Source: Candidatus Poribacteria bacterium (GTDB lineage Bacteria; Poribacteria; WGA-4E; WGA-3G). Taken from it: 64,000 bases of DNA. The translations under genes were made by a program, and so were the position numbers. Of the stretch, positions 57,574 through 59,627 are shown piece by piece. The notes under the pieces were generated by a model. That model was not told the origin of the DNA. It was given only the letters and a program-made list of their open reading frames with translations, and did not search any database. The stretch lies in NCBI GenBank assembly GCA_958295815.1, contig OY282374.1:3684682-3748681 (forward strand), given 5' to 3'. How positions within the stretch are numbered: position 1 is the first letter of the stretch; each line of letters starts with the position of its first letter.

Positions 57574-59514
57574 ATGCACCAAGATAGACGACATCTCATT
57601 ATCGGCACAGCGGGACACGTGGACCACGGGAAAACCGCCCTTATCGGCACACTGACTGGTATGGAGACAGATCGACTCAAGGAGGAGCGGGAACGCGGTC
57701 TATCCATTGAATTAGGCTTTGCTTATTTCGATCTGCCAGATGGCTCACGTGCCGGTATCGTTGACGTTCCTGGACATGAAAAATTTATCCGAAGTATGCT
57801 CTCCGGTGCCTACGGAATGGACATCGTCCTCTTTGTAGTAGATGCCAAGGAAGGTGTTCAAGAACAGACGCTTGAACATTTGGCGATTCTGGATTTGTTG
57901 GGTATTTCTAACGGCATCCTCGTCATGACAAAATCGGATCTGGCAACGCCTGACGAGTTGGCGGAAGCCACGGAAATGACGCAGGAGATGCTCGTTGGTA
58001 CAACTCTCGAAGGCGTTCCGACCGTTAGTGTGTCTTCAATTACCGGTGCTGGCATCGATACCCTAAAGCAGACGATTGTCGAACAGGTCGCGCTCGCGAC
58101 AGAAGTCGAAGAAAACGACGGAATCCCGCGACTATACGTTGACAGGGTTTTCACGGTTCAAGGGTTTGGAATTGTTGTTACTGGCACCCTTATAGGAGGC
58201 ACCATTAATCGGGATCAACGGATGGTCCTTCTTCCGCAAGGAGAACCTGTGCGGGTACGCGGCATACAGGTACATAACGAACCGACATCTGTTGCCCAAG
58301 CCGGTCAAAGGACAGCACTAAATCTGTCTGGCACTTCTGTCCAAAACGTTCAGCGCGGCGATGTACTCTGCCCGATCGAGTTTTCACAGGTGACTGATAA
58401 CATAGACGTGTCCTTACAAGTCCTATCTTCGTTTCCACGGATACTGGAACATTGGAGTCGCTTCCGGGCGTATCTCGGAACCCGCGAGATATTTTGTCGA
58501 TTGATTCTATTGGTTGACGAAGCAATTTTACCGGGAGACACTGTGCAAGTCCAACTCCGCTTAGAGCAACCGATCTTGACCTTTAGGGGTGACCGAATCA
58601 TTTTACGAGATTTCTCAGCACAGCATACGGTCGGCGGTGGCGAGGTACTCAATCCTTTTGCCCCTAAGCATAAACGGTTTACGCCAGAAACCGCAGCTAT
58701 CTTAGCACAATGGGAAGAGGCTGATAACACCGATATAGTTAATATCGTCTTGGAAAATAGCAAGAGGCTTTGTATGCCGGAGTCCTACCTCCACTACTAT
58801 CTACCACACTCACAACAGCGCATGAAAACCATTTTAGACGGTTTAGAAACCGATGGAGAAATTGTGCGATGGGATAAATCCGGCAGGACACCTTTAGTTT
58901 CCGACGAAACACGGACCGCAAAAACTAAAGAGAAAATATTAAATACATTAGCAGACTTTCATGCTGCACAGCCCCTTCTTCCGGGTCAAAATGCCACACA
59001 ACTTCAAAGTAAGGTTGAATTGGACGAAACGGGTTTCGAGAAACTGGAGAACCAACTCATTGCAGAGCGTCAACTCGCTAAAGACGGAAATCTCCTCCGT
59101 TTGACCTCCCATGAAATCCAGTTTTCTCAAGAGGAAGAGACCGCTAAAGAGACGTTAGAAAAATTATTCTTAGAGGCAGGCATCCATACCCCAACGCTCA
59201 AAGAACTTAATACACTACTCCCAGAACATACACCTAAAGTTCTTGAATCAACCTTTTACGCGCTTTTACGCTTGGGACAATTCGTTAAAATAGCAGATGA
59301 TTTTTTCATTCACAAAGTTGCTCTTGAAGAGGGGCAGGAATTATTAATTACTTATCTCCGTGAAAATGATATAATAACTGTTGCAGAATTTCGCGAAATC
59401 GCAGAAACCTCTCGAAAATATGCAGTGCCGTTCTTAGAGTACTGCGATAGTAAAAGTATCACGATCCGAGACGGGAATGTTCGTAGATTACATTCACAGT
59501 ATTCGCAGACATAG
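57574..59514 (+). CDS. selB: Selenocysteine-specific translation elongation factor SelB
   Basis: 'IIGTAGHVDHGKTALIGTLTG…DRLKEERERGLSIELGFAYFDL', 'DVPGHEKFIRSM', and 'TKSDL'. The long C-terminal winged-helix extension (646 aa) is typical of bacterial SelB. Confidence 0.9.
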   Translation: MHQDRRHLIIGTAGHVDHGKTALIGTLTGMETDRLKEERERGLSIELGFAYFDLPDGSRAGIVDVPGHEKFIRSMLSGAYGMDIVLFVVDAKEGVQEQTLEHLAILDLLGISNGILVMTKSDLATPDELAEATEMTQEMLVGTTLEGVPTVSVSSITGAGIDTLKQTIVEQVALATEVEENDGIPRLYVDRVFTVQGFGIVVTGTLIGGTINRDQRMVLLPQGEPVRVRGIQVHNEPTSVAQAGQRTALNLSGTSVQNVQRGDVLCPIEFSQVTDNIDVSLQVLSSFPRILEHWSRFRAYLGTREIFCRLILLVDEAILPGDTVQVQLRLEQPILTFRGDRIILRDFSAQHTVGGGEVLNPFAPKHKRFTPETAAILAQWEEADNTDIVNIVLENSKRLCMPESYLHYYLPHSQQRMKTILDGLETDGEIVRWDKSGRTPLVSDETRTAKTKEKILNTLADFHAAQPLLPGQNATQLQSKVELDETGFEKLENQLIAERQLAKDGNLLRLTSHEIQFSQEEETAKETLEKLFLEAGIHTPTLKELNTLLPEHTPKVLESTFYALLRLGQFVKIADDFFIHKVALEEGQELLITYLRENDIITVAEFREIAETSRKYAVPFLEYCDSKSITIRDGNVRRLHSQYSQT

Positions 59515-59533
59515 TTATGCAAGGTTCAAATAT

Positions 59534-59627
59534 GGGGGAGGATAGGGTCCGGTGGCCCTACCGGTCTTCAAAACCGGCTTGTCCATGCAAGTGGATAGGT
59601 GGGTTCGACTCCCACCCTCTCCCGCCA
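59534..59627 (+). tRNA. selC: tRNA-Sec (selenocysteine tRNA, anticodon UCA)
   Basis: A 94-nt sequence with an 8-bp acceptor stem (gggggagg / cctctccc, one G-U), anticodon stem ccggt/accgg with loop cTTCAaa (anticodon TCA), a long variable arm, T-arm gtggg-ttcgact-cccac, discriminator G, and an encoded CCA. It lies 19 nt after selB. Confidence 0.9.

Follow-up and report, generated by a model that had tools for sequence, protein, structure and literature searches.

In Escherichia coli, selB, the gene for the factor SelB of selenocysteine (Sec) decoding, lies in an operon with selA, and selC, the gene for the selenocysteine tRNA (tRNA-Sec), is found at a separate locus. Tight linkage of selB and selC, which can go as far as a selC nested in the selB reading frame, has been described in Alphaproteobacteria, Gammaproteobacteria and Nitrospirae (Mukai 2021, PMC8124441), and SelB together with SelC is given as the accepted signature of the Sec-decoding trait (PMC1273633). 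Poribacteria were listed in a 2026 study among the nine phyla whose group 4 [NiFeSe] hydrogenases include variants that contain Sec (PMC13582414). Both the use of Sec by Poribacteria and the tight selB–selC linkage, the latter in other phyla, are already known. Here we analyse a stretch of 64,000 nucleotides from a Candidatus Poribacteria bacterium (GenBank assembly GCA_958295815.1, contig OY282374.1, positions 3,684,682 to 3,748,681 of the forward strand; hereafter the window, meaning this whole stretch), in which selB (57574..59514, plus strand) directly precedes selC (59534..59627, plus strand). The two genes very probably represent a canonical bacterial Sec-decoding pair, set inside a string of genes that is conserved throughout the phylum. 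As judged from its sequence, the pair is intact, functional-looking and ordinary, and it reveals no new mechanism.

The selB reading frame encodes a protein of 646 aa, and its identification, already made in an earlier note on this DNA, is borne out by the Pfam domains, by the NCBIfam selB equivalog TIGR00475, which the protein matches at 353.7 bits (cut-off 242.25) from position 1 to position 580 of the 581 in the model, and by a full-length alignment to E. coli SelB. The domains found (GTP_EFTU, GTP_EFTU_D2, Beta-barrel_SelB, SelB-wing_2 at residues 457-510 and SelB-wing_3 at residues 594-639) reproduce the architecture of the E. coli protein (PDB 5lzb-5lzd), in which an EF-Tu-like GTPase comes first, two beta-barrel domains follow, and a winged-helix region makes up the C-terminus. 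The best solved relative is the ribosome-bound E. coli SelB, chain 5lzb_z, whose residues 1-605 (of 614) align with residues 8-639 of the window protein (E 1e-68). The G motifs AGHVDHGKT, DVPGHEKF and TKSD match those of E. coli SelB in this alignment, which also covers the DR(V/A)FTV segment, a segment that we take to be part of the Sec-binding pocket. At the C-terminus, the winged-helix extension (domain IV), which is absent from EF-Tu, is present, with SRKYAVPFLEYCD of the window protein aligned to GRKLAIQILEYFD of E. coli, and is predicted to bind the selenocysteine insertion sequence (SECIS) of the mRNA. The second-best solved relative, SelB of Aquifex aeolicus (PDB 4zu9), is matched over domains I-III (E 6e-65), and the SelB-wing_2 and SelB-wing_3 models, both matched by the window SelB, tie it to the fragment of SelB from Moorella thermoacetica that binds mRNA; neither of these two comparisons revealed a notable difference, and identity was moderate, as expected between phyla. 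No extra domains were found in SelB with Pfam or in the alignment, and the protein is in this respect unremarkable.

After the selB stop codon, a spacer of 19 nt (59515..59533, plus strand) leads to selC, whose limits include G73 and an encoded CCA and whose anticodon is UCA. ARAGORN detected a single tRNA in the whole 64 kb, a tRNA-Sec with anticodon TCA at 59534..59627 on the plus strand. RF01852, the sole Rfam family over threshold within the window, matches 59534..59623 over its full model (1-91) with 78.1 bits and E 2.3e-14, the gathering score being 47. As to a pseudogene or another isotype, the two independent tRNA tools, ARAGORN and Infernal with Rfam, both give Sec. The predicted fold has an energy of -47.7 kcal/mol (z = -3.2 versus shuffles), and the minimum-free-energy structure is composed of an acceptor stem of 8 bp, a D stem of 7 bp with a 4-nt loop, an anticodon stem of 5 bp, a variable arm of 8 bp and a T stem of 5 bp, followed by G and CCA. 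In this predicted structure the geometry is the bacterial 8+5 arrangement, with a 13-bp acceptor/T helix, and the UCA anticodon, the 8-bp acceptor, the 5-bp T stem and the long variable arm are all shared with the E. coli tRNA-Sec. The coordinates and the fold that the earlier note had assigned to this tRNA (anticodon UCA, 8-bp acceptor stem, long variable arm, 19 nt past selB) both hold.

Compared with E. coli, the arrangement of the genes is different, since in the window selB directly precedes selC and selA is unlinked. It is closer to the linkage described by Mukai 2021 (PMC8124441): selC shares the strand of selB and immediately adjoins its 3' end, and the next reading frame is close by, a configuration suggesting that the tRNA and the factor are expressed in a coupled manner. 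The nested cases of that study differ from the window in two respects: here the tRNA begins 19 nt past the stop codon, outside the selB frame, and SelB has no C-terminal extension, the E. coli alignment stopping at residue 639 of 646.

For comparison, one genome per species was scanned, which gave 80 selB loci, all from Candidatus Poribacteria (sponge symbionts), and thus 81 sequences with the window. Full-length SelB orthologues, 72-90% identical, were found in the 80 genomes, which points to purifying selection. Wherever there was DNA downstream of selB, selC followed it (77/77 sequences, the contigs of the others ending before that point); 76 of these copies are intact and one, in locus L044, is split by an intron (see below). 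In the relatives, between ~3 and 414 nt separate the two genes (median around 37 nt), values that are approximate because they were taken from the ends of tblastn alignments. The tRNA itself hardly changes: the window sequence recurs, identical, in 30 other Poribacteria loci, only 23 variants were found overall, and the 21 distinct full-length variants have a mean column identity of 97%. Standard pairs occupy 99.7% of the pair cells in these 21 variants, as against 45-60% when the partners are slid by 1-3 columns. Most substitutions turn a G-C pair into G-U, and one pair of the variable arm changes from U-A to A-U. This pattern looks like that of a functional tRNA under strong constraint.

The remainder of the Sec pathway was sought in the window and in the relatives. 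The window was said to hold no selenoprotein, selA or selD gene, and our domain and read-through scans agree. No SelA or SelD (AIRS) domain was detected in the ~45 open reading frames (ORFs) of the window that were scanned, and tblastn with an E. coli SelD probe matched neither the window nor any of the 80 selB loci. A TGA read-through scan of the whole window yielded antisense or off-frame stretches only, and so did a six-frame reading of all its intergenic gaps longer than 150 nt, in which no TGA-containing gene was found. An all-versus-all comparison of read-through ORFs from 82 sequences was swamped by conserved alternative frames of real genes, and filtering left only trivial end extensions. 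A secreted AhpC/TSA-like protein with a thioredoxin fold (ORF 33312..33902) was considered as a hidden Sec or Cys peroxiredoxin and rejected, as its redox position is occupied by neither a Cys nor a TGA; the protein is probably not a peroxidase.

The relatives gave more. Over the window and the 80 loci, tblastn with an E. coli SelA probe matched only L058 and the edge of L069. The selA gene of L058 (3338-4768, minus strand; TIGR00474 609 bits versus 268) lies ~2.3 kb upstream of lepA, and the match in L069 (3-377, minus strand) falls at the sequence edge; this selA, too, is probably near the selB cluster. When the L058 SelA was used in a protein search, over 100 clusters with at least 68% identity were recovered, and NCBI gives several of these the name Poribacteria L-seryl-tRNA(Sec) selenium transferase. 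The closest relative of the window by SelB (locus L001) carries selA (P0073) on the same 5,062,467-bp chromosome as selB, with selA at 0.87-0.89 Mb and selB at 2.70-2.72 Mb, that is, ~1.8 Mb apart; selA is therefore normally unlinked to selB in this clade, and its position varies within the phylum. This selA (L081:10001-11410) is flanked by genes with an FGE-sulfatase domain, with an ABC ATPase gene downstream, and no SelD-type Pfam domain was present among the called genes of that locus. The lack of selA and selD around selB–selC, pointed out in the earlier note, holds for the window, but such separation is common. For Ca. Poribacteria WGA-3G, whose genome contains our locus L041, a published COG inventory lists SelD (COG0709) once, SelA (COG1921) twice and SelB (COG3276) once (Slaby et al. 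2017, Table S4, PMC5649159), and SelA and SelB co-occur in most sponge-symbiont bins of that study.

A window that has selB and selC and neither selA, selD nor a selenoprotein gene would also be expected of a relic, in which the pair persists after the loss of selA, selD or all the selenoprotein genes and UGA is no longer recoded; the Sec trait is reported to have been lost often in bacterial evolution (PMC1794560). We regard such a relic as very unlikely here, because SelB is full length with its GTPase and winged-helix regions intact, the tRNA-Sec is identical to that of 30 other species, selA and selD have been reported in relatives, and both selB and selC have been retained in 80 species, which would be surprising if they were unused. 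A different possibility is that SelB and the tRNA serve a non-canonical recoding in place of Sec insertion, for instance one in which a tRNA-Sec-like species puts Cys in at UGA, the role proposed for tRNA-ReC. Species resembling tRNA-ReC, with a UCA anticodon, do occur in some Sec-using genomes (PMC13582414), but the tRNA of the window has the standard 8/5 geometry of tRNA-Sec and scores 78 bits on the tRNA-Sec model, and the relatives encode a bona fide SelA equivalog, an enzyme needed only to make Sec-tRNA-Sec, so that this proposal seems extremely improbable.

The pair is embedded in a string of housekeeping genes. Using the window proteins in tblastn, we recovered the order lepA–lepB(–lepB)–selB–lipA in essentially all the 80 Poribacteria loci. 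The string starts in the window with lepA (elongation factor 4; 54021..55826, plus strand), identified by Pfam GTP_EFTU, LepA_C and EFG_C and by TIGR01393 (976.5 bits versus a cut-off of 533.9), and ends with lipA (lipoyl synthase; 59664..60560, plus strand), which begins 36 nt past the tRNA and matches Radical_SAM, LIAS_N and TIGR00510 (394 bits versus 310). Upstream of selB, and mostly directly so, lepA is present in nearly all loci that reach that far, and lipA is found downstream of selC in every locus that extends to it. All genes of the string are on the plus strand, with gaps of 7, 127, 35, 19 and 36 nt between lepA, lepB1, lepB2, selB, selC and lipA. The Pfam and NCBIfam models confirm the setting of lepA, two lepB genes and lipA in which the earlier note had placed the pair. 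E. coli has a lepA–lepB operon, and in Poribacteria, too, lepB comes directly after lepA; the difference is that the Poribacteria string runs on into selB–selC–lipA and that a second lepB is present in only about half of the species.

Upstream of lepA, at a distance of 55 nt from its start, is an insertion sequence (IS; 52625-53966) with terminal inverted repeats of 23 nt (52625-52647 and 53944-53966, 91% complementary) and a transposase ORF on the minus strand (52644..53840; DDE_Tnp_1_assoc and DDE_Tnp_1). That the whole locus is a recently acquired mobile island, delivered beside this IS and not part of the ancestral chromosome, would agree with the closeness of an element with inverted repeats and a DDE transposase to lepA and with the absence of the probed window genes upstream of lepA from the upstream flanks of the relatives, but it is the least credible of the explanations and can practically be set aside, since the order from lepA to lipA is the same in essentially all Poribacteria loci, in most of them together with the PQQ dehydrogenase gene downstream, this transposase is found in 0/80 of the related loci, and the G+C content of the locus (0.46-0.47) is the same as in the rest of the window. 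The conserved gene order in relatives that are free of the transposase and the matching G+C content therefore indicate that the IS is an insertion beside an ancestral locus.

Several observations do weigh against a canonical Sec-decoding pair in a conserved string. Within the 64 kb there is no selA, no selD, no SECIS-bearing gene and no UGA-interrupted ORF; the evidence for selA, selD and selenoproteins comes from relatives, whose SelB is at most 90% identical to that of the window; the support from covariation for the tRNA-Sec is thin, the gene hardly varying and one pair only being changed on both sides; and promoter- and terminator-like sites between 53.7 and 61 kb occur at the shuffled expectation and are uninformative on operon structure. 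We infer that the source genome does have selA, selD and selenoprotein genes and that Sec is actually inserted. The claim that the organism reads UGA as Sec appears well supported by an intact SelB and an intact tRNA-Sec, here and across 80 species, together with selA in relatives.

On the canonical reading, and by analogy with the established E. coli and Moorella systems, from which each step is drawn, the tRNA-Sec would be serylated by seryl-tRNA synthetase, and SelA would turn Ser-tRNA-Sec into Sec-tRNA-Sec with the selenophosphate made by SelD, selA and selD being expected elsewhere in the genome. SelB, with GTP bound, would hold the Sec-tRNA-Sec via its EF-Tu-like domains I-III, and its C-terminal winged-helix domain would bind a SECIS hairpin located just 3' of the in-frame UGA of a selenoprotein mRNA. 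SelB would in this way bring Sec-tRNA-Sec to the ribosome, where that UGA would be decoded as Sec.

Co-expression of the closely spaced, same-strand genes of the string is plausible. A bolder proposal, speculative and in our view rather doubtful, is that lepA–lepB–lepB–selB–selC–lipA forms one transcription unit, with the tRNA-Sec excised from a polycistronic mRNA between selB and lipA, and that, in addition, a sizeable hidden selenoproteome lies behind the universal retention of the Sec module in Poribacteria. If there were a single transcription unit, the ratio of SelB to tRNA-Sec would be fixed, much as in Mukai's nested-selC model, and Sec decoding would be tied to housekeeping expression. 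If this aerobic phylum of sponge symbionts had a hidden selenoproteome, its genes would mostly have gone unannotated, since gene callers stop at UGA.

The two lepB genes between lepA and selB encode type I signal peptidases (SPase I). Bacteria commonly have several SPase I paralogues per genome, as do Bacillus subtilis (SipS/T/U/V/W) and Streptomyces (the sip cluster). The copy farther from selB, lepB1 (55834..56640, plus strand; Peptidase_S26 155 bits, TIGR02227 146.9 bits versus 47), is variably present, and the copy adjoining selB, lepB2 (56768..57538, plus strand; Peptidase_S26 160 bits, TIGR02227 154.6 bits versus 47), is the conserved orthologue. In the ORF list, lepB1 begins with a TTG at 55777, within lepA, and because of this overlap we place the likely start at the ATG at 55834. 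Over 250 aa the two proteins are 68% identical; both have the SGSM, KR[IV] and GDNR motifs (the boxes of the Ser/Lys dyad) and, as the alignment shows, hydrophobic N-terminal segments, VIFIAILVYGFINPFIV and VIVVALILVFGFIRPFVV. Both appear catalytically competent. The likeness to the Bacillus and Streptomyces sets lies in the presence of several paralogues with intact dyad motifs.

Across the 81 sequences, 39 have two lepB genes, 41 have one and a single short locus has none, and the lepB2 position is filled in every locus that reaches upstream of selB (80/81). In a neighbour-joining tree, the copies that adjoin selB group together as one clade (mean identity 79%), and the distant copies fall outside it (mean identity 71%); within a genome, lepB1 and lepB2 are 59-77% identical. 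As read from this tree and these identities, the duplication is old, neither recent nor odd, and the upstream copy has been lost repeatedly. Of the tandem lepB pair reported earlier, the two paralogues stand, their identity falling within the ~65-70% then estimated, and the description as an oddity does not, the pair being old and two copies being present in 39/81 sequences. The two lepB genes are without functional link to Sec.

The most unusual item that we found lies outside the window, in a relative (locus L044, from the Poribacteria metagenome-assembled genome OZ246979.1), where the tRNA-Sec (11959-14386) is split after nucleotide 81 by an insertion of 2,334 bp on the same strand. The split falls in the 3' strand of the T stem, with the exon junction at ...GACTCCCA|CCCTCTCCC..., and the joined exons are identical to the tRNA-Sec of the window. 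The insertion begins with GTGCG, ends with ...CTAC, encodes a protein of 564 aa with RVT_N, RVT_1, GIIM and HNH domains (reverse transcriptase, maturase and HNH), and has a match to domain V/VI of the Rfam family Intron_gpII (69.9 bits) that ends exactly at the 3' exon. By these features the tRNA-Sec of L044 is interrupted by a mobile group II intron. In a 2026 survey of 4,934 complete genomes, only six loci had a group II intron within a bacterial tRNA gene, each time in the anticodon loop or the D-loop (PMC13011429), and an insertion in the 3' strand of the T stem of a tRNA-Sec is therefore unusual.

Other parts of the window were annotated in passing. Beyond lipA (60800-64000), also on the plus strand, lie genes for a dehydrogenase of the methanol/ethanol family that depends on pyrroloquinoline quinone (PQQ; TIGR03075, 652 bits), for a periplasmic binding protein resembling MoxJ and for a c-type cytochrome that has CxxCH motifs and is cut by the window end; this xoxF/mxaF-like trio is conserved 3' of lipA in many relatives. 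Upstream of the IS, at 52300-52372, four tandem copies of an intergenic 18-bp unit (GGGATCTGCTCTTTGTAG) adjoin one copy (52368-52390) of a palindromic intergenic repeat, GG[AG]GGGTTT[ACG]TAACCCC[GT] or GGCGAGGTTTCTAACCTCGCC, whose other copies are at 3829-3923, 10209-10231, 18673-18695, 18918-18940 and 22436-22460. A second hairpin family (AGCCCCAGCGGGGCG) occurs at 18823, 18874, 23920 and 33139, and both families look like repetitive extragenic palindromic (REP)-like elements.

Between 19462 and 21305, an AAA_15/AAA_21 ATPase that matches the PADLOC model NsnB (186 bits) overlaps by 4 nt an ORF of 177 aa with a weak PIN-domain match, and the two may form a two-gene anti-phage module. Two large secreted-type proteins of 765 and 1411 aa (3953-10661), with leucine-rich repeats, dockerin, cohesin and a FlgD_ig-like C-terminal domain, share a C-terminal repeat of 300 nt (5890-6189 versus 10301-10600, 78% identity) and are eukaryote-like repeat proteins of the type reported for sponge symbionts. 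The aspartyl-tRNA synthetase ORF (1803-3812, 669 aa) has ~110 residues, between its OB fold (26-91) and its catalytic match (from 204), that fall outside the Pfam models and could be an insertion or a diverged region. For five ORFs of 188-416 aa (26618-27460, 28881-29447, 31045-32993 and 34905-35492), neither Pfam at its curated cut-offs nor PADLOC gave a match; among these, 31045..32295 shares an ATGA overlap with 32292..32993.

For the source genome, as for the metagenome-assembled genomes of Poribacteria in general, gene callers should accept UGA as a possible Sec codon; if they do not, selenoprotein genes, such as those for formate dehydrogenase, the large subunits of hydrogenases and thiol oxidoreductases, would be split or truncated. 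In this uncultivated phylum of sponge symbionts, the Sec module belongs, as a fixed component, to a conserved string of housekeeping genes, in keeping with the enrichment of SelA and SelB in sponge symbionts reported before (PMC5649159).

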